A stretch of 64,000 nucleotides of DNA, from the NCBI GenBank assembly GCA_039030515.1, contig JBCCEA010000007.1, positions 32,001 to 96,000 of the forward strand, written 5' to 3'. Source of the DNA: Myxococcota bacterium. Lineage in GTDB: Bacteria; Myxococcota_A; Polyangia; Polyangiales; Houyiibacteriaceae. The notes under the pieces were generated by a model. It did no database searches, was not told the DNA's origin, and saw only the letters and a program-made list of their open reading frames with translations. Positions 34,793 to 59,417 of this stretch are shown piece by piece (positions within the stretch are counted from its first letter, which is position 1; the number at the start of each line of letters is the position of its first letter). The position numbers and the translations under genes were made by a program.

Positions 34793-34890
34793 GAATACAG
34801 GCGAGCCCTCTCCAGATCGCAAATCCATCTGGGCGGGCCGTGAACCGATGACCGTGCTGTTTGCGTTCGAATGACAGAGGGGTATGTATC

Positions 34891-36087
34891 ATGTTTGATT
34901 TTTTCACCAAGGATCGTCCAGCAAGCGTCATGATGCTCGTGCTCGGCGCGATCTATTCGGTTGGCTGCAGTGATGATTCTTCCTCAGATGAATCGTCGGC
35001 GGCCACCCGAGCTGCAATGGTCGAGACCTACGCAGAAATCGTACTCGCCAGCTACGAAGACTCGTTGACAGAGGCGACGGCAATGGACGCCGCGCTGCTG
35101 GCCATGACCGAAACGCCGACCGCTGCGACACAGCAGGCCGCCCAGACAGCCTGGCTGGCTTCAAGGGAGCCCTACCTGCAGACCGAAACCTATCGCTTCT
35201 ATGACGGGCCCATCGACAACGCGAAGGATGGACCCGAGGGGCTCATCAATGCATGGCCTCTCGATGAAGCATACATCGACTACGTGGTCGGCGATCTGAC
35301 TGCTGGAATCGTCAACGATTCGATGGTGACCATCGACGCCGCGACCTTAGAGTCCCTCAACGAAGAAGGCGGCGAAGAAAACATCGCGACCGGATATCAC
35401 GCCATCGAGTTCTTGCTTTGGGGACAAGACCTCAGCGAAACCGGCCCGGGCGCTCGGCCATTTTCAGATTACGTGTCAGGCGAGGGCAGCACCGCCGAAA
35501 ACCAAGACCGGCGAGCACTCTATCTCATGACCGTGTCGGATATGCTTCTCGACCATCTTCAGTTTCTCGTCGATGCCTGGGACCCAGCGGATGCTTCGGC
35601 CTACCGGGCCGAGTTTGAAAGCGCGGAGAGCACCGAGGCGCTACGTCGCATACTCACCGGCATGATCGTTCTCAGCGGGTTCGAAACCGGGGGAGAACGT
35701 CTTCAGACCGCCCTCGACACCGGTGACCAGGAAGATGAGCACTCCTGCTTCAGCGACAACACCCACCGCGACATGATTCAGGACATCCAGGGCGTGCTCA
35801 ACGTCTGGCAGGGCTCCTACGCCCGCCTCGACGGCACGACGATTTCGGGCACTGGCGTCGCGGACGTCGTGCGCGAAGTCGACTCCGATTTAGCTCAAGA
35901 GCTCGACGACCAAATCCAGGAAAGTCTCGACCTAGCCAACGCTTTGGTACCTCCTTTCGATCAGGAGCTGGTGACCAAAGATGGCCAAGCGCGAATCCAA
36001 GCTCTGATCGCCGCGCTCCGGGCGCAGGAGAACCTACTGGAAGAGGTCTTCCAGATGTTCGAGCTTTCGATTCCCGTGGTGGAGTAG
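34891..36087 (+). CDS. imelysin-family iron-regulated lipoprotein (IrpA/LruB-like)
   Basis: NAWPLDEAYIDYV, GYHAIEFLLWGQD (GxHxxE), EDEHSCFSDNT; lipobox-like SVG-C; RBS gagggg. Confidence 0.9.
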   Translation: MFDFFTKDRPASVMMLVLGAIYSVGCSDDSSSDESSAATRAAMVETYAEIVLASYEDSLTEATAMDAALLAMTETPTAATQQAAQTAWLASREPYLQTETYRFYDGPIDNAKDGPEGLINAWPLDEAYIDYVVGDLTAGIVNDSMVTIDAATLESLNEEGGEENIATGYHAIEFLLWGQDLSETGPGARPFSDYVSGEGSTAENQDRRALYLMTVSDMLLDHLQFLVDAWDPADASAYRAEFESAESTEALRRILTGMIVLSGFETGGERLQTALDTGDQEDEHSCFSDNTHRDMIQDIQGVLNVWQGSYARLDGTTISGTGVADVVREVDSDLAQELDDQIQESLDLANALVPPFDQELVTKDGQARIQALIAALRAQENLLEEVFQMFELSIPVVE

Positions 36088-36109
36088 GGAGCGCGAACGA
36101 AAGGCACCT

Positions 36110-37714
36110 ATGACGGACTGCACCGACATAGCAAAAAGGGACGCTTGGCATCCGAAGTTACTCGTCCCGCCGTCCTTTGCCCCGGGGTCGTTCGCCCTCG
36201 GGTGCGTGCGGCGGCACCGCATCGGTGCTGAGCTTTGGGTGCACCTCGTCGACCATCCGTATGTGGCTCGAGCCTGCGCGACACGGCTCGCGCTCGCTAT
36301 CCTTCCGCTGCTTGTGCTCTCCGCCTGCAGCTCGAGCGGAAGAGCTGCAGGTTCTTTTGAGCCTGGAGAAGAGCTGCCGGGAGGAGAAACCACCAACACC
36401 CTACTGCTCGGTGAAAACGCCTTCATCAGGCCCGCGTCCAACATCGCCGAAGAAAACGAGCCGCTCTTTTTTTCTGGCAACAGTTTCTTCAATCAGCCTT
36501 GGGTGCAGGCGCCTGCGAGCACCGAAAGTCGAGACGGGCTCGGGCCGCTTTTCAACGCGCGCTCCTGCGCTGCATGCCATTTTCGCGACGGGAGAGGGCG
36601 CCCTCCTTTGGAGCCAGAAGAGCCCTTTCTCGGACTGCTTTTGAGGCTGAGTATTGACGGTCAGTCTGAGCACGATGTCGATCAGCCTGAGCGCGATGTC
36701 GATGCTCTCGGTCATGGGCAGCCGATTGCGGAGCCATCCTACGGCCTACAGCTCCAACCTTTCTCCGTTGCAGATGTTCCTGCGGAAGCTAGGCCCGAAG
36801 TCCACTACCAGGAGATTCACGGAACGTACGCCGATGGCGAACCCTATACGCTGCTCGACCCCACATACACGATATCCGACCTTTCCTACGGCCCCATGCA
36901 TGAAGATCTGCGTCTCTCTCCCCGCGTTGCGCCGGCGGTAGTGGGCCTCGGCCTGCTCGAGGCCATCGACCAGGTAGCGCTACTCGAACTAGAAGATTCC
37001 GAAGATGTGGATGGAGACGGCATTTCCGGTCGCGCCAACTGGGTCTGGGATGTGGTCCAGCAGACATGGTCGCTAGGCCGGTTCGGTTGGAAGGCAGAGC
37101 AGCCAACGGTGCGGCAACAGTCAGCCGCAGCGTTCTCAGGCGACATAGGCATTACCACCACCCTCTTCCCGGCCGAGGGATGCACTGAAGCGCAGCCCGA
37201 GTGCGACTCGGCCCTTTCGGGAGGGGCGCCTGAACTATCCGATCGTCTGTTGCTTCGCGTAGAGGTCTACACCCGCTTGCTTGCAGTTCCCATGCGGATT
37301 CGAGCAAACGATCCGGAAGTGCTGCGAGGAAAGCAGCTTTTTCACGATGCCCAATGCGCTTCCTGTCACGTGCCGAGCTACGTAACGGGAGCAGACTCTG
37401 ATCTTGCAGAGGTGCAAAACCAGCGAATCTGGCCCTACACCGACCTTTTATTGCACGATATGGGAGAAGGGCTTTCCGACCATCGGTCGAGCTTTGCCGC
37501 GAGCGGGAGCGAATGGCGCACGCCGCCTCTGTGGGGGCTTGGATATATCGAGGTGGTGAACGACCACAATCGCCTGCTTCACGATGGAAGAGCGCGCGGC
37601 GTGTCGGAGGCGATTCTCTGGCACGGTGGTGAGGCGCAAGGGTCTAAAGAGTTTTTCGAGTCTATGCCGGCAGAAGACCGCGAAGCGCTCGTGGCCTTCA
37701 TCAACTCGCTGTGA
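36110..37714 (+). CDS. di-heme oxidoreductase (DHOR/DUF1111 family) lipoprotein; start probably near 36263
   Basis: DGLGPLFNARSCAACH, GRFGWKA, CASCH, PYTDLLLHDMG, WRTPPLWG, LLHDGRAR. Confidence 0.9.
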   Translation: MTDCTDIAKRDAWHPKLLVPPSFAPGSFALGCVRRHRIGAELWVHLVDHPYVARACATRLALAILPLLVLSACSSSGRAAGSFEPGEELPGGETTNTLLLGENAFIRPASNIAEENEPLFFSGNSFFNQPWVQAPASTESRDGLGPLFNARSCAACHFRDGRGRPPLEPEEPFLGLLLRLSIDGQSEHDVDQPERDVDALGHGQPIAEPSYGLQLQPFSVADVPAEARPEVHYQEIHGTYADGEPYTLLDPTYTISDLSYGPMHEDLRLSPRVAPAVVGLGLLEAIDQVALLELEDSEDVDGDGISGRANWVWDVVQQTWSLGRFGWKAEQPTVRQQSAAAFSGDIGITTTLFPAEGCTEAQPECDSALSGGAPELSDRLLLRVEVYTRLLAVPMRIRANDPEVLRGKQLFHDAQCASCHVPSYVTGADSDLAEVQNQRIWPYTDLLLHDMGEGLSDHRSSFAASGSEWRTPPLWGLGYIEVVNDHNRLLHDGRARGVSEAILWHGGEAQGSKEFFESMPAEDREALVAFINSL

Positions 37715-38986: not shown

Positions 38987-40576
38987 GTGATGAAGGTTCA
39001 AGCGGTAGGGAGGCAAAAAGAAGCAAATCGAGTCGGTGCTTGGCGACTGTCCACCACGCTGCGCTCTTGGCTTGCGACCTCCTCCGATCCATCAGGCTTG
39101 GCCGCGTTCCGAATCTTGTTCGGCGCGATCATGACCGCGGCGACTTTGCGATTCTGGCTTAAAGGTTGGATCCACGATCTCTACGTGGCCCCGACCTACC
39201 ACTTCACCTATCTCGGTTTCGACTGGGTTCGTCCCTGGCCGGAGCCCCTGATGTACCTTCACTTCCTGGTCATGGGCTTTGCGGCGTTCACGCTCATGCT
39301 CGGTGCCGCGACCCGACTTAGCGCTGCGGTATTCTTTGTGGGCTTTACCTACGTTGAGCTGCTCGAAAAAGCGGCCTACTTAAACCACTACTATTTGGTG
39401 AGCCTGCTTGCGCTTCTCCTGGTGTTTGTGCCGACGAGCGAAGTGGCTTCCTTAGAGTCCTGGTGGCGCTCCAGGAGGCGCCATCGAGTTCCTGACCAAG
39501 TGTTCCCGCGCAGAGGGATTCACGAAGCGCACTGTCGGGCGGAAGCCAGTCCACGCTTCACCACCCGGCGGTGGGGCTACGCGTTGCTGAGAAGCCAGGT
39601 TGCGATGGTTTATCTCTTCGCAGGCTTTGCAAAGTTAAATCACGATTGGCTTTTTGACGCGGAGCCCCTTGCGACTTGGCTTTCTGCACATACCGATCTT
39701 CCGCTGGTCGGTCCCTTCATGGAAAGTGTGTATACCGCCTACGCGATGAGCTGGGCAGGAGCGATATACGACCTCAGCATCGTCTTCCTTCTCTCTTGGA
39801 GCCGAACCCGGTATTGGGCGTATGGCGTGAGTATCGTATTTCACTGTCTGGTGTGGTGGCTGTTTCCCATCGGAGTATTTTCATGGGTGATGCTAGCCTC
39901 GGCTACCCTCTTTTTTGATCCCAGCTGGCCGCGGCGTGTGCTCGAGTCGTTGCAGCATCGTCTCCGTGCGCATCGGCTCCGTGCACTGAAGCCCAGTGCA
40001 CTGCATCGTAGCGATCCGGATGGTTCGGCGCTTGTATTAGAGCCTTTGGAGAAACAGCATTTTGCTCCGGAGAAGACTCGGGCTTTGGGGGTCGGTGCTA
40101 CGCTTGCGATCGGTGTGTATCTGCTGCTTCAGGTATTGATACCGATGCGATTTGCGTTTTTCCCCGGCAACGTGCTCTGGACCGAGCAGGGCTTTCGTTT
40201 CGCTTGGCGGGTGATGCTCATCGAAAAAACCGGCCAGTTGGAGTACGTGGTTCACGCAGATTCCAAACGGTACCGGATCGCTCCAAGACGCGAGCTTTCT
40301 GCGCAACAAGCCCGAATGGTCGCGACCCAGCCGGATATGATCCATCAGTATGCACTTCGCCTAGCGCAGAGATACCGTGAGGCAGGAGCGTCTGACGTTC
40401 GGGTGTATGCGCACTCTTGGGCCTCTCTGAACGGCCGCCCTCATCAACGACTGGTCGATCCCAGCGTCGATCTCGCCTCGTATCCGCGGAGCTTTGGTGC
40501 CGCCGCGTGGCTCGGTGCCACCCCCTGGATCGTCCCGCTGAAGGAGCCCCGGCTTGGCTCGTTGCCCACGATGTAG
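38987..40576 (+). CDS. HTTM-domain protein, vitamin K-dependent gamma-glutamyl carboxylase homolog
   Basis: LAAFRILFG, YLNHYY, YLFAGFAKLNHDWL, FPIGVF, FRFAWRVML, QPDMIHQYA, SLNGRPHQRLVDPSVDL. Confidence 0.88.
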   Translation: MMKVQAVGRQKEANRVGAWRLSTTLRSWLATSSDPSGLAAFRILFGAIMTAATLRFWLKGWIHDLYVAPTYHFTYLGFDWVRPWPEPLMYLHFLVMGFAAFTLMLGAATRLSAAVFFVGFTYVELLEKAAYLNHYYLVSLLALLLVFVPTSEVASLESWWRSRRRHRVPDQVFPRRGIHEAHCRAEASPRFTTRRWGYALLRSQVAMVYLFAGFAKLNHDWLFDAEPLATWLSAHTDLPLVGPFMESVYTAYAMSWAGAIYDLSIVFLLSWSRTRYWAYGVSIVFHCLVWWLFPIGVFSWVMLASATLFFDPSWPRRVLESLQHRLRAHRLRALKPSALHRSDPDGSALVLEPLEKQHFAPEKTRALGVGATLAIGVYLLLQVLIPMRFAFFPGNVLWTEQGFRFAWRVMLIEKTGQLEYVVHADSKRYRIAPRRELSAQQARMVATQPDMIHQYALRLAQRYREAGASDVRVYAHSWASLNGRPHQRLVDPSVDLASYPRSFGAAAWLGATPWIVPLKEPRLGSLPTM

Positions 40577-46967: not shown

Positions 46968-48068
46968 TCACTGGGTCGTTTCGAGTCCAGAGATCCACAA
47001 AAAGAGGTTTGTGCGTCCGTCGGCATCGACGATTTCTGAGCCGAGAGGAGGCATCTGATCCTCTCCGCGGATCCCGGTCCGTAAGTACAGCGTACTGATA
47101 TCGGGTCTCCTCGGCACAATGCGTTGGTTCGCCTCGATGCTGCCGTCTACGAGGGTTCGCCATTCGCTGTCGACCTCGATGGCGGTGAGATAGGCTGGCG
47201 CTTGCTGCTCCGTAGCCAAGCCGACCGGTACCCAAAGCCGTAGACCCTCTGGAGCGCTTTCGTCCGCGCTGTGGCAGTGCCCACAGTTGGCGTGCAAATA
47301 GCCCAGAGCTTGTTGCGTATGTTCCATGCCTGGAATCGCGGCAAGTTCAGTAGGTATGTCGTGTGAGAGCATTCCGAGATCACGAAGGTCCTGCAGCGTC
47401 GTTTCGCTTCGGTCGTGATTCAACTGAACCGCTCCAAACCCGAGCACCATATCCCTTGGCCCGTATTCGGAGTGACACTCAACGCACTGAGCGAGTGACG
47501 GGATGTCGTGGGGTGTACCGAGGGCGTTCTCCTCACCGCCGAAAGGAACTTCGTTTGCTTCAGACGGGCCGTCCCAACGATAGGTCCGAAAGTCCCAGTG
47601 ATTGACCCCAGTGCCCGAAGTTGTTTTCTCGAAATAGCGTGTCTCGACTCGGGCGCCTTGATAGGAGAAGGTTTTCCAAATCCGGGTGCCGACCGGAAAG
47701 ACCCAATGATCTGCTTCTCTAGTATCGATTTGTGAGCCCTCGGGAAAAGAAATGAACCGCTCTTTTCCGGTACCGTCACTCCAAAGCCAGAAACGCGGGC
47801 TGTAGGCCAGAATCGACGGATTGAGGACGGAGCAGTCGGCGTCGATATACAGGTCTGGAGGACCGTTACAGAAGTCGCCCGCGGCATCCTCGGACGACGA
47901 ATCCACATTGGGTTCCTGCGCATCGGCCACGTCCGCATCGAAGGTTGTGACCGCTCCATCTGCGGATATTTCGCGGCTAGGGCCCGTCGAATCCGAGCAG
48001 GAACTCGCGAGCACAACCCAGACAACGACGAATCGACGTCTCCCCACGCTCTCTAGGAATAAGGTCAT
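46968..48068 (-). CDS. di-heme c-type cytochrome lipoprotein (SO2930-like)
   Basis: LWSDG..KER, FPVGT..WKTF..VETR, CVECH, YLHANCGHCH, QMPPLG; lipobox-like LASS-C. Confidence 0.8.
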   Translation of the reverse strand: MTLFLESVGRRRFVVVWVVLASSCSDSTGPSREISADGAVTTFDADVADAQEPNVDSSSEDAAGDFCNGPPDLYIDADCSVLNPSILAYSPRFWLWSDGTGKERFISFPEGSQIDTREADHWVFPVGTRIWKTFSYQGARVETRYFEKTTSGTGVNHWDFRTYRWDGPSEANEVPFGGEENALGTPHDIPSLAQCVECHSEYGPRDMVLGFGAVQLNHDRSETTLQDLRDLGMLSHDIPTELAAIPGMEHTQQALGYLHANCGHCHSADESAPEGLRLWVPVGLATEQQAPAYLTAIEVDSEWRTLVDGSIEANQRIVPRRPDISTLYLRTGIRGEDQMPPLGSEIVDADGRTNLFLWISGLETTQ

Positions 48069-48167
48069 TTACCGTGCTCGTCCACTGTTGAATCGTGTAC
48101 TCTGAGAGAAAAGAACCGTTCACACTGTATACAGGTGTTGGGTTCCTTTGCTTCTTGGGACGGGGAA

Positions 48168-49058
48168 ATGAAGTCGATCTCAGTAGTTACGCTGTCGGTC
48201 GCTGCGGTACTGCCTTGGCAGTCCGCACGGGCACAGGAGGAACAGCCACGAACCCCGAGCGCGGCCGAGCAAACCCCCGCCGCCGAGGGTGCGGGACAAG
48301 GCCCGATCACCGTCGATCATCGGCAACACGACTCGCGATATGATTCTCAACTCGATCAGGCCGCTCGACTGACGTTTCTCGCGGGACGGGAAGCTTTTGT
48401 TCAGGGTGATTACGCTACGGCGCTGGATCGATTTCGCCAGGCATACGACCTCAGCCCGCGTCCTATGCTTCTTTTGAATATCGCCTCCTGTTTGGATCGG
48501 CTCCGTCGAGACGAAGAGACGGTCGCTGCGCTCCGTCAGTATCTAGCGTCCGAAGATGCGCAGCATGCGCCCAACCTGGCTGAGGTACAGGCGCGTATCG
48601 AGGTGCTGGAAGAGGCCATTGCTGCGCGCCGACGCGAAGAAGCGATGAATGAGGAGCTGTCTTTGGCCGCCGCTGTTGTGCCGCTGCCCGAGCAGGAGCC
48701 AGAGCAGGGCGGACTGAACCCGATAGTGTTCTATTCGGTTGCGGGTGCGGCGCTTGCATCAGGAGCCGTCTTGATTTGGTCGGGAATCGATGCGTCTAGC
48801 CGCAACGACGACTACGAGTCGTATGCTGCAGACCTGAGTAATACCGACAGTGCCCGTGCACGTTCTCTATATAACGACGTTGAGGATGCCGAGCGGCGCA
48901 CCAATATTTTAATAGGCGTCACCGCGGGACTCGGCGTGGCCGCTGGAGCGCTCGCTTTCTTTACTCGATGGGGCTCCCGCGAAACTCGTCCGGATACGGA
49001 TGCCGCCGTGGCGGTGACTGCCGAAGGGTTCGTCATTCGAGCAGGTCGCCGTTTTTAG
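48168..49058 (+). CDS. exported TPR protein with hydrophobic C-terminal region (myxobacterial TPR/PEGA-associated type)
   Basis: signal peptide ending ARA-Q; GDYATALDRFRQAYDLSPRPMLLLNIASCLDRL; C-terminal Gly/Ala-rich helices and terminal F. Confidence 0.75.
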   Translation: MKSISVVTLSVAAVLPWQSARAQEEQPRTPSAAEQTPAAEGAGQGPITVDHRQHDSRYDSQLDQAARLTFLAGREAFVQGDYATALDRFRQAYDLSPRPMLLLNIASCLDRLRRDEETVAALRQYLASEDAQHAPNLAEVQARIEVLEEAIAARRREEAMNEELSLAAAVVPLPEQEPEQGGLNPIVFYSVAGAALASGAVLIWSGIDASSRNDDYESYAADLSNTDSARARSLYNDVEDAERRTNILIGVTAGLGVAAGALAFFTRWGSRETRPDTDAAVAVTAEGFVIRAGRRF

Positions 49059-49067
49059 CCGGAAGGG

Positions 49068-50225
49068 ATGAACATGCTGATGAACAATGTGCGACATCGA
49101 CCTCCGGCGTATGCTCTGCTGCTTCTTTGTGCCGGATGTAGTCTCGCCAACGAGAGTTTGCTGGAGCGTTTCGAGGGAAGCTCAATCGATGCGGGGCCTG
49201 AGGACGCGCAACCGGTAACGAGCCAGGACTCCGGCGCCGCGGATGCGTCAGAAGGAGACGCGTCCGGATTCGATGCTGGACCTGCTCCAGCGGACCGTTG
49301 CGAAGACAACGGGGACACCTTGGTTCTCACCGACACCACTGAGGATCTGGTGATCGACACCCGCAACAATGTGAGCACGATATCGAGTCTCCCATCCTGC
49401 GGTCTGCAGGTGCCGGGTAGCGATGCGTTCGTTGCTGTCGACGTAGAGCCGGGCACCTACTGGCATTTTCATTTGCAAACCGATCCCACAGCCGCCAGCG
49501 ATAGCCGAGAGCGAGACCCAACGCTTTATCTATTGCGTGACGGGTGCAATGTGACTCAATGTCAGGCAGCGACAGTTGCGGACTATTGCGGCTCTACCAG
49601 CGACGAGGAGCACTTCGGCTTCGAGTTCCCACAGGCTGGAAGATGGTTTATCGGCATCGATGATCGCATCAGCGGAGGTGGGGTTTACCTCCTCGACGCG
49701 GTGCGCCCGGTCTGCGGTGACGGTCGTGTCGATCATGGAGAGGCCTGCGACGATGCGGTCGAAGATGGACCTGCATGTGAATCGTGTCGTCTGGTTCTCA
49801 ATGAGGACGACCGGTTTGCGACGGGCTTCAACTTTAATCTGCAGGAAGCGCACCTGGTGGAGCCATCGGCAATCGATGGGACGCCCAGCGTTGGTTTGAC
49901 CATCGGTGGACTGCTCGGTGGTTTGGCCGATTGTTCCTACCCGGCCTACTACGCGATTGCGGTAGAAGACGGGCGACCGAACCTTCGAGTCGAGTATCTG
50001 ATGCAGGGCGTCGACGCATGCGATGCAGATGGTGAGGCTCAGGACGTGACCATGGTTCTCGAAACTCTGGGTGGCGGGCAGCCGGACGCGAACATCACCT
50101 CAGGGGCTTGCCCAACGGTCCAAGCGCGATTGAGCGAAGGCTTATACTTCATAAGCATTGTCGATGATCGCGAGGATCGGAGTCGTGTTGTTCGCTACGA
50201 AGTCCGTTTCACCCTGAGTCCCTGA
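49068..50225 (+). CDS. Cys-rich lipoprotein with PPC-like beta domains and one myxobacterial disulfide (DUF4215-like) repeat
   Basis: lipobox LCAG-C; DPTLYLL, GRWFIGID; CGDGRVDHGEACDD. Confidence 0.7.
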   Translation: MNMLMNNVRHRPPAYALLLLCAGCSLANESLLERFEGSSIDAGPEDAQPVTSQDSGAADASEGDASGFDAGPAPADRCEDNGDTLVLTDTTEDLVIDTRNNVSTISSLPSCGLQVPGSDAFVAVDVEPGTYWHFHLQTDPTAASDSRERDPTLYLLRDGCNVTQCQAATVADYCGSTSDEEHFGFEFPQAGRWFIGIDDRISGGGVYLLDAVRPVCGDGRVDHGEACDDAVEDGPACESCRLVLNEDDRFATGFNFNLQEAHLVEPSAIDGTPSVGLTIGGLLGGLADCSYPAYYAIAVEDGRPNLRVEYLMQGVDACDADGEAQDVTMVLETLGGGQPDANITSGACPTVQARLSEGLYFISIVDDREDRSRVVRYEVRFTLSP

Positions 50226-50245
50226 CGGGCAGAGAGACCATCGCC

Positions 50246-52744
50246 ATGCTGCTCCTCATTCAGAGAACCAGTGGCTTGCTGCGCAGATCGGCAGGGAGCC
50301 TTTTATTCTTGGTGGTACTTTCGGTTCCGTATTCGACTCGAGCACACGAATTTTATACATCTAGAGTGCCAAATGCGGCAACTGCACTCTCATCCGATGG
50401 CTCGACCAAGCCTTGCATTACCTGCCACGACAACGTGGATGGTGGTGCAGGATGTACCTCGTCCGGAGGCGCGAGGCCGTGCCTCAACCCTTTTGGGGTA
50501 CAGTTTCGTGATGCAAGCTTTCTCTGGAGCAACGCGCTTTCGCAGCTTGACGCCGATGGGGACGGGTTTACCAACGGGCAAGAGCTGCAAGATGCGGAAG
50601 GGAACTGGATACCCGGTGACCATAGTCCCGGTGTAACGAACTACGTCACTCGGCCCGGCTTTGACGACTCCACTCCGGGGCAGATCGATGCGGATGGTGA
50701 TGGCTTTTGCTGGTTTGGGGAAGACCTAGACGGCAGCGGAAGCTGCGATGGCGTCACTGAAAACACCGGAGCGCTCGACTGCGACGACGGCGACGACAGC
50801 GTGAATAGCGGGGCGGTTGAGCTGTGCAGCAATGTGATCGACGACGACTGCAACGGGCTTACCACCCTTGAGGATCCTGCTTGCGAAGACGTGGTGGACC
50901 GGGATGGAGACGGCTTTTGCGTGCTCGGTCGAGACCTCAATGGTGACCGAGACTGTATCGACGGCAGCGGTGAGCAGACCTCAGACATCGATTGTGACGA
51001 TACGCGAATTACCGTGTTTCCGGGAAATCGAGAGAACTGTACTGATGGACAGGACAACGACTGTAACGGACTAATTGACGTAGCGGATACGCAATGCCGC
51101 AGCGATGTGGATGAGGACTCCGACGGGTTTTGTCCGTTGGGGGTTGACTTGAATGGCGATGGTGACTGCCTCGACGCTGGAGAACTCGACGATAGCGTTT
51201 TTTCGGATGGTTTCGATTGTGATGATCAGAATGCCGCTGCAAATCCAGATCAGACAGAAATCTGCGATGACTCGATCGACAATGACTGCGATGGAGATGC
51301 AAATTTTATCGACTCTGAATGCCAAGGTTTTTTCGATGCGGATGGAGATGGATTTTGTGTTTCCGGGATAGATCGCAACGGAGACGGTGACTGCATCGAT
51401 GAGCTCGAGGGGCTTGCCGACGGGGAACTCGGTGACTGCAACGATCTCGATCCACTCGTGGCACCCGGACGAGGTGAGGATGGAGACGCTTGCCGAGATT
51501 CGATCGACAACGACTGTGACGGCAGCATCAGTCTCGCGGATAGCGACTGTGCGGGGTATCTCGACACAGACGGTGATCGCTACTGCCTCGTTGGGTTCGA
51601 CGCAAACCTCGACGGTGACTGCGCCGACATCGATGAGGAAGGTGGCACTTTAGTAGACTGCGACGACTCACTGGCCTCCATATCCCCGGTCGCGGTTGAG
51701 ATTTGTACCGATGGACTCGACAACGACTGTGATGGAAGCACCGATGCAGCAGATCCGGGGGATCCCGATCCTGAGTCGGGGACGTTCCTAAATAGCTGCA
51801 CCGATTTTGCCGATCTCGATCGCGACGGTTACTGCGTTCAGGGTCGAGATCTTAACGCCGATTTCGATTGCGCAGACGAGGGAGAACTGGATGCGGCCGA
51901 AGGTCTGAGCGACAGCTTCCCTCTCGACCCAACGATAGGCCCGGGAGCCTTCGAACACTGTGGCGATGGGGTCGACAACGATCTCGATGGACTTGTCGAT
52001 CTCGAGAGCCCCTCATGTTCTCGGGACAGCGACGCCGACGGAGATGGGTTTTGCAGTATCGGACGCGACCTCAACGGCGACGGAGATTGCCTGGACAGCA
52101 GTGAAGACCCCTCGATGGACGAACTGCGCTTCGGAGATTTCGATTGCGACGATCGAGATGCCGAGGTCTATCCCGCAAACGACGCAGCCGGTCTCGAGAA
52201 TTGTTTTGATTTTGTGGACAACGACTGCGACACGCGCGTGGATCTCGACGACGCCGAGTGTAAGCGTTTCTTCGATGCAGATGGTGACGGATTCTGCCCC
52301 ACCGGAGTGGACGACAACGGAGATGGCGACTGCTTGGATGTTGCCGAGGATCGTTTTGGAGAAGACTGCTCCGACAATCCGCTCCTAGAGCCGCTGGCCG
52401 CTTCTATCAACATTCGTGCAAGAGAGATTTGCGACGACCTTATCGACAACGATTGCGACGGCGCTACCGATCTCGAGGACACCCAGTGCGACTGCATGAC
52501 GTTTTGTGATGATGGCGATCCGTGCACCATCGATGGCTGCAATGAAGCCAAGACTCTGTGCGCGTATCGTCCGGATCCCGCTTGCTTTGATGCCGGTGCG
52601 CCGCCTGTGCTTGATGGAGACGGCGGCACACCGGCTCGCTCCGCAGGTGGTGGATGTTATGTCGGGGGTAGCCCACGTCACACCCTCCTGATTTGGATCG
52701 TCGGATGTCTGGGCTGGCTCATCCTTCGCCGGAGGCGTCCATGA
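50246..52744 (+). CDS. surface protein: CxxCH/temptin-like head + 8 MopE-like Asp/Cys repeats + MYXO-CTERM-like anchor
   Basis: signal peptide; CITCH..LNPFG..DADGDGFTNGQEL; repeated DxDGDGFC..DCDD..EIC..DNDCDG; GGGC-hydrophobic-RRRR tail. Confidence 0.85.
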   Translation: MLLLIQRTSGLLRRSAGSLLFLVVLSVPYSTRAHEFYTSRVPNAATALSSDGSTKPCITCHDNVDGGAGCTSSGGARPCLNPFGVQFRDASFLWSNALSQLDADGDGFTNGQELQDAEGNWIPGDHSPGVTNYVTRPGFDDSTPGQIDADGDGFCWFGEDLDGSGSCDGVTENTGALDCDDGDDSVNSGAVELCSNVIDDDCNGLTTLEDPACEDVVDRDGDGFCVLGRDLNGDRDCIDGSGEQTSDIDCDDTRITVFPGNRENCTDGQDNDCNGLIDVADTQCRSDVDEDSDGFCPLGVDLNGDGDCLDAGELDDSVFSDGFDCDDQNAAANPDQTEICDDSIDNDCDGDANFIDSECQGFFDADGDGFCVSGIDRNGDGDCIDELEGLADGELGDCNDLDPLVAPGRGEDGDACRDSIDNDCDGSISLADSDCAGYLDTDGDRYCLVGFDANLDGDCADIDEEGGTLVDCDDSLASISPVAVEICTDGLDNDCDGSTDAADPGDPDPESGTFLNSCTDFADLDRDGYCVQGRDLNADFDCADEGELDAAEGLSDSFPLDPTIGPGAFEHCGDGVDNDLDGLVDLESPSCSRDSDADGDGFCSIGRDLNGDGDCLDSSEDPSMDELRFGDFDCDDRDAEVYPANDAAGLENCFDFVDNDCDTRVDLDDAECKRFFDADGDGFCPTGVDDNGDGDCLDVAEDRFGEDCSDNPLLEPLAASINIRAREICDDLIDNDCDGATDLEDTQCDCMTFCDDGDPCTIDGCNEAKTLCAYRPDPACFDAGAPPVLDGDGGTPARSAGGGCYVGGSPRHTLLIWIVGCLGWLILRRRRP

Positions 52745-55700
52745 TGCAGCCATGGATGCGTCTCGCTTTGGGGCTTTTGTTGCTGTTTGGCTGGGCTCCT
52801 TCCGCTCAGGCCTATCCCTACTACGGACACTACGGCTCGGGATCCAACCCGCCAGGCACCACAGATTTTGGAGTTGGAGCTCATTCGTCTGGATGCGAGA
52901 TGTGCCACACCAACACGGGAGGAGGTCTCTCGTGCGCTGGTGGCTTTTTCCCCTGTCTCAATCCCTTTGGCCTAGCCTATTTTTCGAATGGTGGCTGGAC
53001 CACCTCATTTGGGAATGCAGATTCCGATGCTGACGGTCAGTCCAATCTCTCCGAGGTGAACAATACATCTCGTCAGCCTGGATTTCCTCGCCAGGCGAGC
53101 TCCTGCGATCTCTCGGACTGCGCTTCCACGCTTTCTGATGACTGCTCGGGTGGCGGCACCGGGTTCAACATCACCTGTAATCGCATCCAGTATGCTTCAG
53201 GCAGGTACAGCTACACCTATAGCTTCTCGTGCGATAATGCAGGTTACGATAGTGACTTTGCGTCAGACGAGAGCAGCTGGCTTTGCTCTGATATCAACGA
53301 GTGCTCGACGTCGAATCCTTGCGGTGAAGACAATACTTTCAGCAACAATGCTTGTTCGAACACTGCAGGAAGCTGGAGCTGTGACTGCAATGCTGGCTAT
53401 ACAGAATTTGGATCCGTAGCGGCGCGAACCAACGGCTGCAGTAGTAACAACGAGTGCAGTACGGGGGATCCTTGTAGCGTCTCTGGGCTGGGTAACAATA
53501 TATGCACGGAACTGACGGGTTCCTACGATTGCTCTTGCGACTCGGGCTACAACCGAACCGGATCGATTACCGGTGTCAATCGGAAATGCCTCGATATCGA
53601 TGAATGCTCCGCGAACAATTACTGCGGTGAAGACTATTCTGATAGCGATACGAGCTGCGTGAATCAAACGGGAGGATTTTCCTGTGAGTGCGGCGTCAAT
53701 GAAGGGTTTACCGCTGCCGGTTCAGGCAACCTCGGTCAGAGGTGTAACGATATCAACGAATGCAACGAAGAAAACCACTGTCGCGAAGATGACTTCTCGA
53801 GCGTCAACAGCTGCAGCAACACCAGCGGCGGCTACCGATGCTCCTGCGGAGCGGGTTTTCAGCTTAGCGGTAGTGCCCCTCGAAGCCAGACTTGCCAGGA
53901 TATCGACGAGTGCGCGCAGAACAGCGGTCTTTGCGGTCGAACCGGAACCTTTGGTAGCGGCGCGAATGTCTGCACCAACGTGGATGGCGGTTATAGTTGC
54001 AGCTGCATTGCAGGATTTACCCACCAAAACAGCGGCGCTCCCGCGACAAATCGTAATCAAGACTGCATCCCCATCGATGAGTGCGTGAGTACTTCCGTAT
54101 GTGGACAAAATCTTGGCCCTGGTGGAACCAACACCTGCACCAACTTAGTTCAGGGGTACAGCTGCAGTTGTCAGTCACCACAGTTTTCAGCCACAGGTAG
54201 CGGCAGCTTTGATGGAGACTGCGTCGACGTAAACGAGTGCACCGACGGAGGCCCTTCTGACAACACATGTCATCAAGAGGACGGGTGGGGTAGCTGTACA
54301 AACTATACCGGTAGCGGTAGTGCCATCGGATACGGTTGCACATGTGGAGCAGGTTTTACGCGCATTAATGCTGGAACGACCTCCGAGGACTGCGCAGACA
54401 TCAACGAATGTACCGACGAGTCTGGAGCCGATACGAGCTGCAACGCGCATTTAGGTTATGGTTCGTGCAATAATACGACAGGTGGATACAGCTGTACGTG
54501 TGCCGATGGCTACGAGAGTTTTCTCGATGGAGGCGACCCAAGCTGTCGTAACGTCGATGAATGTAGCGACGAAGCTGGCGCGGATACGAGCTGTAACGCG
54601 CATTTGGGATTTGGGACCTGTACCGATACCGATGGTGGGTTTACGTGCAGCTGCGATACCGCAAACGGATACGCGTTTGATGCAGGCGCTCAGACCTGTG
54701 TGTTGGAAAACGAGTGTACAAATCCGGCCAACAACAACTGCGATGTGAATGCAACGTGCACGGATACGCCTACTGGATTTACGTGTTCATGCGATCAAGG
54801 TTGGACGGGTAGCGGCACAAGCTGCTCTAACGTCGATGAGTGTGCCGTAGCCACGCAGTGCGGTCAGAATCTCGGCGGCGGCGGGATCAATACCTGCATC
54901 GATACTAGCGGCGGGTTCACGTGTGTCTGCGGCCCTGGTTTTTCGGCTCAAGGCTCTGGCTTTACCGCGACCTGTGTGAATCAGAACGAATGCAGCGATA
55001 CGCCAGGCATTTGCGGGGCAGGCTCCTGTACTGATCTTGAGGGCTCTTACTCCTGCAATTGTCCCGAGGGATACTCATTTTCAGGCGGCACGTGCCAAAA
55101 TATCGATGAATGCGGCAATTCCAGCACGTGCGGTCAAGACCTCGGTGCGCCAGGCACCAACACCTGTACCGATCTGACTCCTGGGTACAGTTGCGTTTGC
55201 GACTCCAGCGGATACGACCTGAGCGGCTCTGGCTTCTCTGCTGCCTGCATCGACCGTGATGAATGTGCACAGACCAATCCGTGCAGCGTAGGATCATGCG
55301 ACAACTCAGTCGGCGGGTACTCCTGCAATTGCCCCTCTGGATATATCTTCCAAAATGGAACCTGCGAGGACGTGGACGAATGTGTGTTGTCGCCCTGCGG
55401 CTCTAACGCGACGGGCTGCAACAATATCGGCGGCAGCTATGAATGTGCTTGTGCCACCGGATACGCCGCCCCAGCTGCGGGAGGTAGCTGCGCGGATATC
55501 GATGAGTGCGTGGTGAGCGCGCCGTGTGGTTCGAACTCTTCTTCGTGCAGCAATCGTGACGGTACATACTCTTGCGCGTGCAGTGCGGGTTACTCCGCTC
55601 CCTCTCAAGGAGGCACGTGTGCCAACATCAATGAGTGTGCCGAGACTCCTGATATCTGCGGAGTGGGTAGCTGCGAAGATGATGAGGGCAGCTACAGCTG

Positions 55701-57288
55701 CAGCTGTCCTGAGGGATACAGTGCGCCGGTAACAGCAGGTACCTGTGAGAACGTCGATGAATGCACCGAGACCCCTGGAGTCTGCGGCAGCAATGCAAGC
55801 CGCTGCAGCGACTCCGAAGGCAGTTACGTCTGTGAGTGCGAAAGCGGTTATGAAGCGCCGGCCAGTGGCGGCAGCTGCATCAATATCGACGAATGCAGCA
55901 TCGGTACACCATGCGATCCAGGTAACTGCAGCGATCTTGAAGGAACCTACAGCTGCAGCTGCCCCGAGGGCTTTGCGGTGGCTTCGGGTACATCGGGTCC
56001 TTTCTGCGTCGATATCGACGAGTGTCTGGGAGATCCCTGCGGTCCCGGGACATGTTTTGAGACAGGCGTTGGCGGTGATTCACGTGGCTTTGGAGATTAT
56101 TTCTGCGTGTGTAACGCAGGATATGTGGAGAGCGCAGAGTTGAACGGTGTCTGTCAAAATGTCGATGAATGCCTCACTCCCGAGGTAAGCCTGTGCCCTA
56201 GCAACTCGACCTGCACGGATACGGACGGGCGTTGGGAGTGTCCTTGCGATATCGGTTTCGAATACGATGTGTCCGGGACGATCTGCATCAACGTCGACGA
56301 GTGCGCCTTAGGGCTCGATGATTGCGCTCCGGTTACGGCTACCTGCTCGGACCTCACGCCGGTTCAGGCAGACCCAAGAAGATGGGAGTGCAGCTGCAAC
56401 GTCGGGTATCAGGGATCTGGAGTGACCTGCGTCGACATAGATGAATGCGCGATCGGAACGCCGTGCGGCGAAAATGAGCTCTGCGTCAATCGCTTAAGTG
56501 GAGAGCAGCCCGATTGTCGGTGCCGGCCGGGGTACACCCGCAATGAGGAGTCGCTTCTGTGTGAACTTAGCTGCGGTGATGGAACGCTGGGACAGACCGA
56601 GGTTTGCGACGACGGAAACAGCGAGCCGGGTGACGGCTGTAGCGATGCATGTCTCATCGAGCCGGGTTACGTCTGCCTGACCCCGGGTGCTTCCTGCCTG
56701 CAGACTTGCGGAGACGGCGTCCTTCAGACTCACGAAGAATGTGACGACGGAGACGAGAACTCCGATACGGCCGCCGATGCCTGCCGTCTCAGTGGATGTG
56801 TGTTCGCGCGTTGTGGAGATGGGGTGATCGATACCGGTGAGGCCTGCGACGATGGTGATATGGAGACCGTCGAAGGCATGGCGATCAACTCAGACCGTGA
56901 TCCAGATGCCTGTCGCACCGATTGCTCCCTACCAAGATGTGGAGATGGCGTGGTCGATACCGGTGAGCTTTGCGATCCGGGGATCCTCGAAGATGAGGCC
57001 TGCACGAGTGAGGTCGCCTGCGGATTTGCGGTGCAGGAACCGCCGCCCGATGCATCTGCTGTAGCATTGGATGCGTCAAGCCCAGACGCGGGTTCATCGA
57101 CGCCCGCCTCTTCGGGAGGAGGCTGCGCGCTTGGAGGCCGGCCCCAATCGTCCATGCCTCGAACTTCTTTGCTGTGGCTGGTCCTTTGGACGCTCACCTG
57201 CTTGCGGCGCGCTAGAAAGTCAGCAGGCCGAAGTACCAGTCGACGAGCGGCGTTCCGAAGAACAGATACTCAAGAGCGGCAAGGCTGA
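52741..57288 (+). CDS. giant surface protein: CxxCH/temptin-like head + 23 calcium-binding EGF-like domains + 4 DUF4215-like repeats + MYXO-CTERM-like anchor
   Basis: signal ending AQA-Y; CEMCH..LNPFG..DSDADG; 23 x (D/N)x(D/N)EC..C..Cx(D/N)xxGx(Y/F)xCxCxxG(Y/F)..C; CGDG..E.CDDG; GGGC..LLWLVLWTLTCLRR; ATGA overlap with upstream gene. Confidence 0.9.
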   Translation: MMQPWMRLALGLLLLFGWAPSAQAYPYYGHYGSGSNPPGTTDFGVGAHSSGCEMCHTNTGGGLSCAGGFFPCLNPFGLAYFSNGGWTTSFGNADSDADGQSNLSEVNNTSRQPGFPRQASSCDLSDCASTLSDDCSGGGTGFNITCNRIQYASGRYSYTYSFSCDNAGYDSDFASDESSWLCSDINECSTSNPCGEDNTFSNNACSNTAGSWSCDCNAGYTEFGSVAARTNGCSSNNECSTGDPCSVSGLGNNICTELTGSYDCSCDSGYNRTGSITGVNRKCLDIDECSANNYCGEDYSDSDTSCVNQTGGFSCECGVNEGFTAAGSGNLGQRCNDINECNEENHCREDDFSSVNSCSNTSGGYRCSCGAGFQLSGSAPRSQTCQDIDECAQNSGLCGRTGTFGSGANVCTNVDGGYSCSCIAGFTHQNSGAPATNRNQDCIPIDECVSTSVCGQNLGPGGTNTCTNLVQGYSCSCQSPQFSATGSGSFDGDCVDVNECTDGGPSDNTCHQEDGWGSCTNYTGSGSAIGYGCTCGAGFTRINAGTTSEDCADINECTDESGADTSCNAHLGYGSCNNTTGGYSCTCADGYESFLDGGDPSCRNVDECSDEAGADTSCNAHLGFGTCTDTDGGFTCSCDTANGYAFDAGAQTCVLENECTNPANNNCDVNATCTDTPTGFTCSCDQGWTGSGTSCSNVDECAVATQCGQNLGGGGINTCIDTSGGFTCVCGPGFSAQGSGFTATCVNQNECSDTPGICGAGSCTDLEGSYSCNCPEGYSFSGGTCQNIDECGNSSTCGQDLGAPGTNTCTDLTPGYSCVCDSSGYDLSGSGFSAACIDRDECAQTNPCSVGSCDNSVGGYSCNCPSGYIFQNGTCEDVDECVLSPCGSNATGCNNIGGSYECACATGYAAPAAGGSCADIDECVVSAPCGSNSSSCSNRDGTYSCACSAGYSAPSQGGTCANINECAETPDICGVGSCEDDEGSYSCSCPEGYSAPVTAGTCENVDECTETPGVCGSNASRCSDSEGSYVCECESGYEAPASGGSCINIDECSIGTPCDPGNCSDLEGTYSCSCPEGFAVASGTSGPFCVDIDECLGDPCGPGTCFETGVGGDSRGFGDYFCVCNAGYVESAELNGVCQNVDECLTPEVSLCPSNSTCTDTDGRWECPCDIGFEYDVSGTICINVDECALGLDDCAPVTATCSDLTPVQADPRRWECSCNVGYQGSGVTCVDIDECAIGTPCGENELCVNRLSGEQPDCRCRPGYTRNEESLLCELSCGDGTLGQTEVCDDGNSEPGDGCSDACLIEPGYVCLTPGASCLQTCGDGVLQTHEECDDGDENSDTAADACRLSGCVFARCGDGVIDTGEACDDGDMETVEGMAINSDRDPDACRTDCSLPRCGDGVVDTGELCDPGILEDEACTSEVACGFAVQEPPPDASAVALDASSPDAGSSTPASSGGGCALGGRPQSSMPRTSLLWLVLWTLTCLRRARKSAGRSTSRRAAFRRTDTQERQG

Positions 57289-58192
57289 GGAAGGGACCGA
57301 ACTTGATTTTGAGCCGACCGAACTCAGCAGGTCGGCTCTCCTCCAGAGGATCCTCTGAGCTGTAGTCGTTTCCGGCTGAACTGTTCTCCGCTTCAGTCAG
57401 CGTCTCTTTTTGCGCCTCGGACTCCGGCATAACGCCGGTGGTCTCCGCCGATTCGGATTCGCCTTGGAGCACGCCTAGCTTGCCCGCTGCGCCGAGCAGC
57501 ACTGTCGCGACAACGCCCTGCATGGACCCGATAGCGAGGGTGAAAAGCACGCCTTCCCATCCTAGGAATGCGCCGATCATCATGAGGAGTTTCGCATCTC
57601 CTTCCCCCATGCCGCGCCTGCCGGTCGCGAGTTCATACGCCCAGACAAAGGGAACTTGGATGATGAGAAAGCCGACTCCCGCGCCCACCGCAGCAGCTTC
57701 CGCGCCGGGCATGTGCCGGACGGTGGCGGTGACGAGTCCGAGGGCACAGCCGGGCAAGCTGATCTCGTCGGGGATGATCATGTGCTCGAGATCGGTAAAG
57801 GTGGCGATGAGCAAGGCTCCCGCAAACGAGAACCAAAGTCCGGTTTGCAAAAGCCCGTCTGAGGCTGGAGTGAACTGAGGCGCTCGAACAAAAAACACCT
57901 CCGCCACCGCCAAGCACAAGAGGCCGGCGAGGACCTCGACAAAAACGTAGCGAGGTGAAATCCGTGCGCTGCAGCAGGCGGCTCGGCCGCGCAGCACACA
58001 CCAGCTCACGATCGGGATGTTCTGCCAAGGGGGGATCTGCACGCCGCAGCTGGGGCAACGACTCGAGGGGAAGACTACCGACTCCTCGAATGGAAGCCGG
58101 TGAATCGCGACGTTGAAAAAGCTTCCCCACAGGCTACCGAATAAAAAGGCAAGCAAACGTACGGCGAAGGGTGTCAGATCTGAGGTGGACAC
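57212..58192 (-). CDS. pilD: prepilin peptidase / N-methyltransferase
   Basis: GSFFNVAIHRLP, SRCPSC, NIPIVSW..LRGR, TDLEHMIIPD, GMGEGDAKL, FGPFL; GTG 58192. Confidence 0.93.
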   Translation of the reverse strand: MSTSDLTPFAVRLLAFLFGSLWGSFFNVAIHRLPFEESVVFPSSRCPSCGVQIPPWQNIPIVSWCVLRGRAACCSARISPRYVFVEVLAGLLCLAVAEVFFVRAPQFTPASDGLLQTGLWFSFAGALLIATFTDLEHMIIPDEISLPGCALGLVTATVRHMPGAEAAAVGAGVGFLIIQVPFVWAYELATGRRGMGEGDAKLLMMIGAFLGWEGVLFTLAIGSMQGVVATVLLGAAGKLGVLQGESESAETTGVMPESEAQKETLTEAENSSAGNDYSSEDPLEESRPAEFGRLKIKFGPFLSLAALEYLFFGTPLVDWYFGLLTF

Positions 58193-58286
58193 GCGGCGGC
58201 ATCGTAGTCGCTTCATCAAGCTGAGGAAAGGTTTGCTAGCGGTATCCGGATGTGCGCGACGCTTGGATCCGCATACACTCAGACGG

Positions 58287-59417
58287 GTGACGGATGGCCA
58301 CTCGATCGTAAGCAGCACAGCGCCTCGGAGTGCGCTCCGGGACGCGAGGCGGATCGTCGTCAAGATCGGAAGTCGATCCCTAGTCGAAGCGGAGGGTCGA
58401 TTTGCTCTTCTCTCAAAGCAGCTTCAGGCGATGCGAGATCGAGGGTGCATGGTGGTACTCGTTTCGTCGGGCGCGATCGCGCTCGGGATCGACCGCCTCG
58501 AGCTCTTGGAGCGTCCAGGGTCTATCGCCGGACTGCAGGCGGTCGCCGCGGTCGGTCAAACCGAACTGATGCGTCGCTGGGAGCATGCATTGGCCGAATG
58601 TGGGATGGCGAGTGCACAGGTTCTTCTCACCCATGCGGATTTATCCGATCGGGATCGCTACCTTCACGTGCGCTCTGCGATCGATGCGATGCTCGATCTT
58701 CAGGCGCTGCCGATCATCAACGAGAACGATACGGTCGGCTTTGAAGAGATTCGCTTTGGAGACAACGATCAGCTTGCTGCGATGGTGGCCACCCTCGTCG
58801 GCGCGGACCTCCTGCTCTTGCTCACCCACACCGAGGGGCTCCTCGATGCCGAGAACCGATGTATCCCGCTAGTGCAGGATATCGAACAGGCGCGAACAGC
58901 GATCCGTCCTGAAAAGAGTACGCAAGGCAGTGGAGGGATGGCGAGCAAAGTCGATGCTGCGGTCCGTGCGACCCGACGCGGCGTGCCCGTCGTAGTCGCT
59001 TCTGCTTCAGAGCGGGAGGTGCTTACCCGCATTGTGGACGGAGATCGTCTCGGAACTTTATTTTTGCCGGTCGGTGCTCCGATGGCGAGCCGGAAGCACT
59101 GGATCGCCTACACCCTCCGCTCCAAAGGACAACTGTTTTTAGACGCGGGCGCGATACGGGCGGTCGTCCATGAAAAGAGAAGCCTGCTTCCCGCAGGTGT
59201 GGTCGCGGTGCGTGGAGACTTTGAGCCCGGCGATGCGGTCGATCTCTGCACGATGGAGGGCATCGAAGTCGCAAAAGGACTGGTTCGTTACGAAGTGGGA
59301 GACGTAGCCCGGCTTGCCGGGGCGCATTCTCGAGATATCGAAGAGCGAACGGGAAGATTTGGCGGAGAGGCGCTGGTTCATCGCAACGATATGGTGGTAC
59401 TCGATGCATATGGATGA
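58287..59417 (+). CDS. proB: glutamate 5-kinase (start uncertain)
   Basis: RIVVKIGS, VSSGAI, INENDT, FGDNDQL, GSGGMASK, PUA domain. Confidence 0.95.
   Translation: MTDGHSIVSSTAPRSALRDARRIVVKIGSRSLVEAEGRFALLSKQLQAMRDRGCMVVLVSSGAIALGIDRLELLERPGSIAGLQAVAAVGQTELMRRWEHALAECGMASAQVLLTHADLSDRDRYLHVRSAIDAMLDLQALPIINENDTVGFEEIRFGDNDQLAAMVATLVGADLLLLLTHTEGLLDAENRCIPLVQDIEQARTAIRPEKSTQGSGGMASKVDAAVRATRRGVPVVVASASEREVLTRIVDGDRLGTLFLPVGAPMASRKHWIAYTLRSKGQLFLDAGAIRAVVHEKRSLLPAGVVAVRGDFEPGDAVDLCTMEGIEVAKGLVRYEVGDVARLAGAHSRDIEERTGRFGGEALVHRNDMVVLDAYG

Follow-up and report, generated by a model that had tools for sequence, protein, structure and literature searches.

A conserved five-gene cassette of Polyangiales myxobacteria encodes two predicted surface proteins with Temptin-like CxxCH heads

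MYXO-CTERM proteins are the main way in which myxobacteria decorate their surface, and only heads of the recognition or adhesion type have so far been studied among them. TraA of Myxococcus xanthus displays a PA14-like head, and its partner TraB is of the OmpA type. The design of TraA combines a signal peptide, a distal functional head and a Cys-rich stalk with a tail made of a Cys motif, a helix and an Arg cluster (PMC11980579), and a dedicated partner gene lies adjacent (PMC3325183). Cleavage dependent on the myxosortase MrtX, together with surface display, has been demonstrated for TraA and for MXAN_4924 (PMC11980579). Here we describe a cassette of five genes at positions 46968 to 57288 of a 64,000-nucleotide stretch of a Myxococcota genome (contig JBCCEA010000007.1, positions 32,001 to 96,000; the window), in which two large proteins, P0004 and P0005, share this layout while differing from TraA in head, stalks and partners.

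Three features set the cassette apart from TraA. Its head is a Temptin-like domain with a CxxCH motif and an EF-hand loop, and the Pfam scan of P0004 and P0005 gave no PA14 match; two paralogous heads are present, each on a different stalk; and the partners are a diheme cytochrome, a membrane protein with tetratricopeptide repeats (TPR) and a beta-sandwich lipoprotein. Moreover, the tail of TraA is processed by MrtX, with surface display (PMC11980579), whereas the cassette tails are MYXO-CTERM-like by sequence. A preliminary description of the locus, made from the letters alone, knew of no such arrangement. That judgement stands for the combination of parts and the set of partners, for which we found no description in the literature searched, but not for the head-stalk-tail design, of which TraA is a characterised analogue (PMC11980579). 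The cassette is built of known parts: its head belongs to a Pfam family, and its repeats and its sorting signal are of known kinds. Their combination was not found described in these searches.

Other systems resemble single parts of the cassette. The surface cytochromes of metal reducers, of the MtrC/OmcA type, are lipid-anchored c-type hemoproteins, as we propose for the cassette proteins, but in them many hemes form a wire that a porin-cytochrome conduit supplies, whereas the cassette has one heme motif per stalk protein, a heme-free stalk and no conduit gene. Methylococcus capsulatus has a surface-associated copper-binding protein, MopE, with a co-regulated surface diheme cytochrome. The cassette likewise encodes a protein with 'MopE' motifs beside a diheme c-type cytochrome, both extracytoplasmic, but only the short PF11617 motif is common to the two systems. 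Their cytochromes belong to different families, and the cassette protein, which was not compared with a MopE sequence, has no recognisable copper site. Temptin, a water-borne pheromone of molluscs, is thought to act as a binding module. It belongs to the same family as the cassette heads (PF24784; 'Temptin Cys/Cys disulfide domain' in UniRef) and shares with them an invariant His, a Trp and a DxDxDG..E loop, but the eukaryotic forms read G-V-G-H or similar where the bacterial forms carry CxxCH. The literature that our searches found on temptin concerned animal biology only, mostly of molluscs, with no bacterial or heme role, and nothing was found for PF24784.

Layout and conservation of the cassette

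The window belongs to a metagenome-assembled genome (MAG) of 4.08 Mb in 75 contigs that is 85% complete; in the following, G labels denote genomes (G000 being the window's own), L labels extracted loci, and P0001 to P0005 the cassette proteins. DNA of the cassette region is present in four sequence runs, all of them DNA from one marine metagenome study, and no RNA run is listed among them. Relatives with the same genes are labelled as Polyangiales, Sandaracinaceae or Sandaracinus MAGs.

The preliminary description had reported four co-oriented, tightly spaced genes, the last two overlapping as ATGA, at about 100 bp from a divergent lipoprotein gene with two CxxCH motifs. All five open reading frames (ORFs) were found in these places, and the divergent spacer, read directly from the sequence, measures 99 bp (48069..48167). 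On the minus strand, P0001 (46968..48068, 366 aa) is a c-type cytochrome of the lipoprotein type with diheme motifs, assigned from its translation and an NCBIfam scan. The plus-strand string begins with P0002, an exported TPR protein (48168..49058; 307-aa form from the ATG at 48168, assigned by translation, Pfam scan and orthologue alignment), for which ORF reading gives an alternative GTG start at 48135. It continues after 9 bp with the lipoprotein P0003 (49068..50225, 385 aa; translation, Pfam scan and AlphaFold2 model) and after a further 20 bp with the first stalk protein, P0004 (50246..52744, 832 aa; translation and Pfam scan), which overlaps through ATGA with the second, P0005 (52741..57288, 1515 aa; translation, Pfam scan and BLASTP). 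A promoter and terminator scan, uninformative for this phylum, gave no consensus sigma-70 site in the spacer.

Conservation was examined in 40 relatives plus the window genome, with the head family, an alignment of the lipoprotein and the cytochrome as queries. In 13 of these 41 related Polyangiales genomes, the window's own included, the genes for the cytochrome, the lipoprotein and the head share a single contig, where they fall within about 6 kb of each other and keep the same relative order and orientation. Carriers make up 12 of the 25 genomes of the window's family, in 10 genera (G000, G003, G004, G005, G007, G011, G012, G013, G014, G017, G019 and G024), and one of the 16 genomes from other families of the order (G037), so that the cassette spans 11 genera and 2 families. 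The TPR gene was confirmed in every complete fetched locus (L014-L018 and L126) and also in L127, in L021, whose contig is cut, and in the metagenome loci L042 and L043. The co-occurrence in related genomes, which the preliminary description had set as a test, is thus conserved. In G015, the contig ends after the TPR, lipoprotein and head genes. The genes flanking the cassette in the window, among them those for DNA polymerase III alpha and a prepilin peptidase, were found in none of the fetched relative loci. With one gene order repeated in 13 of the 41 genomes between unrelated flanks, the arrangement is far beyond chance, and the five genes are a sharply bounded, conserved unit. The anatomy of the cassette (gene order, conservation and domain content) is secure.

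A second head gene, of the type of P0005 with its epidermal growth factor (EGF) repeats, adjoins head A in 6 or more of the 13 cassette genomes. This count is a minimum, since even the second head of the window scores close to the limit of the head model. Orthologues of P0004 keep their length (806-888 aa), whereas P0005-type proteins vary from 752 to 2034 aa. The preliminary description had imagined the head displayed at two distances from the cell, and a length-conserved A stalk next to a variable B stalk would agree with that idea. The A and B units are also found fused in a single frame, around an internal MYXO-CTERM, in two representative clusters, and extra head-A-type copies occur without partners in L022-L024. 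A tree of 26 head sequences, which left out the window's head B as below the extraction threshold, was mostly unresolved and gave a supported grouping only for the EGF-type heads of G012, G024 and G037.

The Temptin-like head domain

The N-terminal domain shared by the two large proteins had been put forward as part of an undescribed system; the domain itself is not new, since in the domain scan it matched an existing Pfam family, Temptin_C (PF24784). The match covers positions 3-97 of the 98 in the model and reaches 51.5 bits with the whole of P0004 and 56 bits with the head alone, against a cut-off of 27. Head A, as defined by this match, spans approximately residues 34-142 of P0004 (nt 50345-50671, plus strand) and includes, by translation, the motif CITCH from residue 57 (nt 50414-50428) and, by alignment, the EF-hand loop DADGDGFTNGQE. 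Head B, a shorter Temptin-like domain of P0005 (about nt 52813-53070, plus strand), was located by BLASTP to head A and contains the motif CEMCH from residue 52 (nt 52894-52908, from the translation). The homology of the two N-terminal domains claimed earlier is confirmed by BLASTP (31% over 91 residues, E 1e-10); in both proteins a signal-peptide-like segment is followed by one CxxCH, and each of the 11 orthologous heads likewise carries a single motif.

At E<=1e-3, a full HMMER search against 1.84 billion representatives yielded 1320 clusters of the head family. From the best 150 of these, 145 representatives cover the motif column, and the CxxCH proposed from the two window proteins is conserved in 116 of them; in 142 of the 145 the domain lies within the first 80 residues. 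An alignment of 71 rows showed the motif His, one Gly, one Trp and the acidic residues D73, D75, D77 and E84 to be invariant. Together with G78, these acidic residues occupy positions 1, 3, 5, 6 and 12 of an EF-hand loop. The 29 representatives without CxxCH mostly read (P/A)GVGH and thus retain the His. Those with a recorded source are eukaryotic (a diatom, two molluscs with proteins named 'temptin-like', and protist transcriptomes), next to one entry named 'predicted ferric reductase', and some Temptin-family domains without the Cys pair are fused to membrane and NAD-binding proteins of the ferric-reductase type, an arrangement found on one contig. The Cys-less forms score highest against Temptin_C, at 109-119 bits versus 38-77 bits for the CxxCH forms. 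Together, these observations suggest that animal temptin was derived from a bacterial domain of the heme type. Examples of Cys-less family members are encoded at L106:2895-5516 and L106:5721-6275 (both on the plus strand), and others are the proteins P0081, P0056, P0095 and P0100.

Among the bacterial architectures, the head is joined to a type IX secretion system (T9SS) tail in proteins of approximately 220 aa, many of them in low-GC contigs, or to immunoglobulin (Ig) and PKD repeats. One 1188-aa protein (L077:2497-6060, plus strand) begins with a head whose motif reads CAACH and continues with several Ig domains, nine further CxxCH motifs and Pfam matches to cytochrome c7/c3. Of 29 metagenome loci with a length of 6 kb or more, we scanned the neighbours of the head in 25. 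In 4 of these 25 (L065, L072, L089 and L117) the head gene adjoins a gene for a Rieske protein or a Rieske/cytochrome b pair, and in one (L051) it adjoins CcmF; the neighbours in the remaining loci are unrelated. The window genome itself has three cytochrome c assembly genes (PF01578) above the cut-off. A CxxCH that is kept while its two middle residues vary freely is the pattern that heme attachment, more than a structural disulfide, would produce. The bacterial temptin branch is large, uncharacterised and probably heme-binding.

The AlphaFold model of the head, in which no cofactor was included, has a predicted local distance difference test (pLDDT) score of 92 and little regular secondary structure. 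It gave no Foldseek match in the PDB at E<=0.001 and no VIA-align match at Z>=2 in an exhaustive comparison with 48,161 chains, and the head profile matched PDB sequences only in the T9SS/FlgD-like tails of aligned homologues. The family links a bacterial branch that is uncharacterised and has no solved structure to animal temptin and to eukaryotic ferric reductases. Heme binding by the bacterial form, if true, would be the first biochemical function of the family, and it should be easy to examine because the domain is small and its predicted folding confidence is high.

Stalks, tails and partner proteins

The stalks consist of known repeats by their sequence signatures: the MopE motif in P0004, and calcium-binding EGF domains with myxobacterial Cys repeats in P0005. 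The stalk of P0004 has eight acidic disulfide repeats, with 20% Asp and 58 Cys in the protein, and P0004 matches PF11617 ('Cu-binding_MopE') in 8 stretches with 130.2 bits; one of its homologues is named 'MopE-related protein' by NCBI. P0005 matches EGF_CA (PF07645) above the cut-off in 16 tandem stretches (278.7 bits) and has 20 sites of the consensus [DN]x[DN][EQ]C with which calcium-binding EGF domains start, four CGDG Cys-rich repeats (DUF4215) and 168 Cys.

Both proteins end in the tripartite layout of MYXO-CTERM, i.e., a Cys motif, a hydrophobic helix and an Arg-rich end. The tail of P0004 reads GGGC..LLIWIVGCLGWLIL-RRRRP (nt 52646-52741, plus strand), and that of P0005 reads GGGC..LLWLVLWTLTCL-RRARK, followed by a further basic stretch (nt 57109-57285, plus strand). 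The likeness to MYXO-CTERM drawn in the preliminary description finds support in relatives, as 8 of 9 homologues pass the model TIGR03901 and orthologous tails read ...GGCGCRV...LLLRRRRR, and in the genome, which encodes a myxosortase core protein at G000:C23 (NF040914, 111.8 bits, cut-off 100); the window's own tails, however, miss the model. According to its authors, TIGR03901 is short and sensitive to lineage (preprint 10.1101/2023.06.07.544157). We regard the window tails as MYXO-CTERM-like in their sequence layout.

The cytochrome P0001 has a lipobox-like N-terminus (...LASSC) and CxxCH motifs at residues 195-199 (nt 47472-47486) and 262-266 (nt 47271-47285). It had been called SO2930-like. 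The alignment with the model of that family, TIGR03806, runs over positions 21-312 of 314 with both CxxCH inside, but its 121.6 bits stay below the membership cut-off of 313.3, so that P0001 is a distant relative and not a member. Members of the SO2930 family have an adjacent parallel beta-helix partner as a feature, and the general Pfam scan of the five cassette proteins gave no match to a beta-helix family. In our literature search, no characterised function was found for the SO2930 family, one paper merely lists SO2930, and nothing was found for TIGR03806, HNE_0200 or 'GEGP motif'. Seven orthologues of P0001 share invariant residues, namely both CxxCH motifs, H187, H218, H259 and M339 (in QMPP), and its structural neighbours in the Atlas include the same module fused to pyrroloquinoline quinone (PQQ) sugar dehydrogenases. 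A role as electron carrier fits these invariant heme motifs, His residues and QMPP Met and the fusion to PQQ dehydrogenases. The match of P0001 to the model of MtrC/MtrF domain II/IV is weak (17 bits, cut-off 30), the Pfam and NCBIfam scans gave no match to a family of the peroxidase or MauG type, and neither P0001 nor P0003 has sequence relatives in the PDB. It should be noted that the six-frame matches to the cytochrome orthologues of G011, G007, G017 and G037 each contain one in-frame stop (TGA or TAG); L126:17365-18321 is listed among these in-frame-stop cytochromes, and overrun of the N-terminal alignment, an assembly error and a broken gene are all possible.

P0002 is composed of a signal peptide, a TPR region (weak Pfam match), an acidic or coiled linker and two hydrophobic helices rich in Gly and Ala (residues 197-215 and 258-276, counted in the 307-aa form). 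Its C-terminal end, ...G.(R/T/S)F, is conserved. In the 11 orthologue frames, aligned by eye, the signal peptide, the TPR region, both helices and the ...G.xF end are all present. A similarity of P0002 to a Ser/Thr kinase ORF was rejected, as the matching frame is a separate upstream gene.

P0003 is built of a beta-sandwich (PPC-like, with a weak PPC match), one myxobacterial Cys-rich repeat (CGDG..HGE.CD) and a second beta-sandwich. Its AlphaFold2 model (pLDDT 75.7) shows the two sandwiches flanking a small Cys-rich module, and the best PDB matches of this model are the tandem collagen-binding domains of ColG (E 1.7e-9) and CUB-EGF-CUB modules. A cluster of His and Glu residues (H133, H135, E181 and H182) is invariant in 25 sequences, paralogues included, which suggests a metal or ligand site. 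The protein is rare, with 8 relatives in a word-indexed protein search. One relative lies in L038, in a record labelled as a MAG of the actinobacterial order Jiangellales; the match contains stop codons, and the contig may be mis-binned or the gene a pseudogene.

Paralogues of P0002 adjoin paralogues of P0003 in 6 of 7 other loci, and a Ser/Thr kinase gene lies between the two in at least four of them (L119, L121, L122 and L125). Because the pair recurs elsewhere and is linked to a kinase in at least four loci, P0002 and P0003 can be seen as a module of their own that the cassette recruited. The TPR/kinase/lipoprotein set is a separate, apparently undescribed three-gene module of Polyangiales. 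The paralogue pair is also found in L120 and L124; the kinase encoded between its members is a membrane protein, and a FeoB gene is nearby in two loci.

Functional readings and neighbouring genes

Of the functional readings considered, the best supported by the predicted features is extracytoplasmic redox chemistry, because the heme motif is conserved, a diheme cytochrome gene lies beside the heads in 11 genera, and the head has electron-transfer proteins as fusion partners and neighbours elsewhere. We favour it with a confidence that stops somewhat short of even: the cassette would encode two Sec-exported stalk proteins with a c-type heme on a Temptin-like head with an EF-hand loop and a lipid anchor of the MYXO-CTERM type, probably located at the cell surface. 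P0004 and P0005 would be exported by Sec and receive one c-type heme on each N-terminal head. The myxosortase would then cleave and lipidate their tails, and they would be exported in the manner of TraA, so that each head sits at the outer tip of a stalk that calcium and disulfides stabilise. The heads might then carry out one-electron chemistry outside the cytoplasm, such as reduction of a metal or an oxidant, or redox sensing. The divergently encoded diheme lipoprotein would give or take electrons, and the TPR membrane protein and the double-beta-sandwich lipoprotein may form an envelope scaffold or a binding pair. If the heme reading is true, the cassette would add redox chemistry to the surface repertoire of myxobacteria, and it raises the question of how a lone distal heme is supplied with electrons.

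A number of observations weigh against this redox proposal. The cassette has no gene for a porin-cytochrome or other outer-membrane conduit, and a lone heme on a long heme-free stalk would have no evident electron path to the cell. Head B scores 22.2 bits against Temptin_C, below the threshold of 27, and matches positions 40-75 of the model only. Eukaryotic relatives keep the His without the Cys pair, so the His may serve in a role other than covalent heme attachment. The window tails gave no match to TIGR03901 (cut-off 20 bits) even at E<=10; the full P0004 and P0005 at E<=0.01 and a six-frame search of the genome at E<=0.1 were equally without a match, and P0005 has approximately 29 extra basic residues beyond the tail helix. 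The partners, moreover, are not specific to the head. Among 80 metagenome loci with a head, only the 4 that hold the closest heads also have genes for the cytochrome, the TPR protein or the lipoprotein; G032 has the cytochrome orthologue alone, without the module; and lipoprotein paralogues occur in G010, G030 and G039, where the head search found none. In G016 (L127, G016:C141), the cytochrome-TPR-lipoprotein trio is followed by an FG-GAP repeat protein of 692 aa (L127 5800-7875, minus strand) in place of the Temptin-head protein.

The heme site itself adds a further difficulty. Downstream of the motif, no Met or His reaches a frequency of 30% in the 71-row alignment, and hence there is no conserved sixth ligand. 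Since neither a Met nor a second His is conserved, a heme in the head would either stay five-coordinate or have its site closed by the amine of the free N-terminus. Such an amine closes the heme site of cytochrome f. In 66 of 66 rows, one of the residues A, S, G or C stands just before the predicted mature N-terminus of the heads, and in 65 of 71 rows exactly eight residues separate it from an invariant Pro. By analogy with cytochrome f, we infer that the free N-terminus could complete the head heme site.

A more far-reaching version of the redox proposal appears doubtful to us. Here the Temptin-like domain would be an unrecognised small monoheme cytochrome c with a calcium loop, of a fold new to the PDB and with more than 1000 clusters, that Sandaracinaceae-type myxobacteria place on two rigid stalk types as a lipid-anchored redox head at the surface, with a diheme cytochrome dedicated to it and an envelope pair in its service. 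Animal temptins would be descendants that lost the Cys residues for heme attachment, as would the outer domains of certain ferric reductases of eukaryotes.

A different account, in our estimate unlikely, sees the cassette as a system of adhesion or recognition comparable with TraA. The head would be a calcium-dependent binder of proteins or ligands in which a heme or a CxxC disulfide is structural only, the two stalks would present this binder for contact with other cells, prey or matrix, and P0003 would be a co-receptor. This agrees with the design shared with TraA, from signal peptide, distal head and Cys-rich stalk to MYXO-CTERM (PMC11980579). It also agrees with the canonical EF-hand loop, with the eukaryotic family members that work without the Cys pair, with the resemblance of P0003 to the ColG collagen-binding tandem and to CUB-EGF-CUB, with the adhesion-type EGF_CA repeats and with the replacement of the head by an FG-GAP protein in one relative. 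The account leaves the divergent diheme cytochrome, conserved in 13 of 41 genomes, without a role, however, and it sits poorly with a CxxCH whose middle residues are free in 116 of 145 representatives and with electron-transfer proteins as the fusions and neighbours of the head elsewhere.

It is less probable still that the cassette is an envelope sensor, in which the TPR protein and the lipoprotein form a signal-receiving pair fed by heme heads that sense redox state, gas or metal. The joint occurrence of their paralogues in 6 of 7 other loci, with a Ser/Thr kinase between them in at least four, and the invariance of H133, H135, E181 and H182 in the lipoprotein point in this direction, but the cassette contains no kinase or other transducer, and no function is on record for the TPR/lipoprotein pair in any context. 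Surface capture of copper or iron by analogy with MopE, with the acidic repeats or the head His as metal ligands and a cytochrome that either reduces the metal or matures the binding site, is very improbable in spite of the eight PF11617 motifs of P0004, its homologue named after MopE and the fusion of Cys-less heads to ferric reductases, because PF11617 is a short Cys/Asp motif distinct from the MopE copper site, P0001 matched the SO2930 model and no family of the peroxidase or MauG type, and the cassette has no metal transporter.

Several genes outside the cassette were also noted in the window. A wider syntenic block was considered and rejected, as the genes for DNA polymerase III alpha, prepilin peptidase, HTTM and di-haem oxidoreductase (DHOR) are near the cassette in no fetched locus. 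The prepilin peptidase (A24) ORF (57212-58363, minus strand) is convergent with the head-B gene, overlaps its 3' end by approximately 76 bp as called, and is not kept beside the cassette in the fetched loci of relatives. A bacterial homologue of vitamin K-dependent gamma-carboxylase (38987-40576, plus strand; HTTM 245 bits and lumenal domain 145 bits), which was not syntenic with the cassette in these loci either, is encoded upstream of the gene for P0005, the protein with calcium-binding EGF repeats, at a distance of approximately 12 kb. Further upstream, at 34861-37714 on the plus strand, adjacent genes encode an imelysin (Peptidase_M75) and the DHOR protein.

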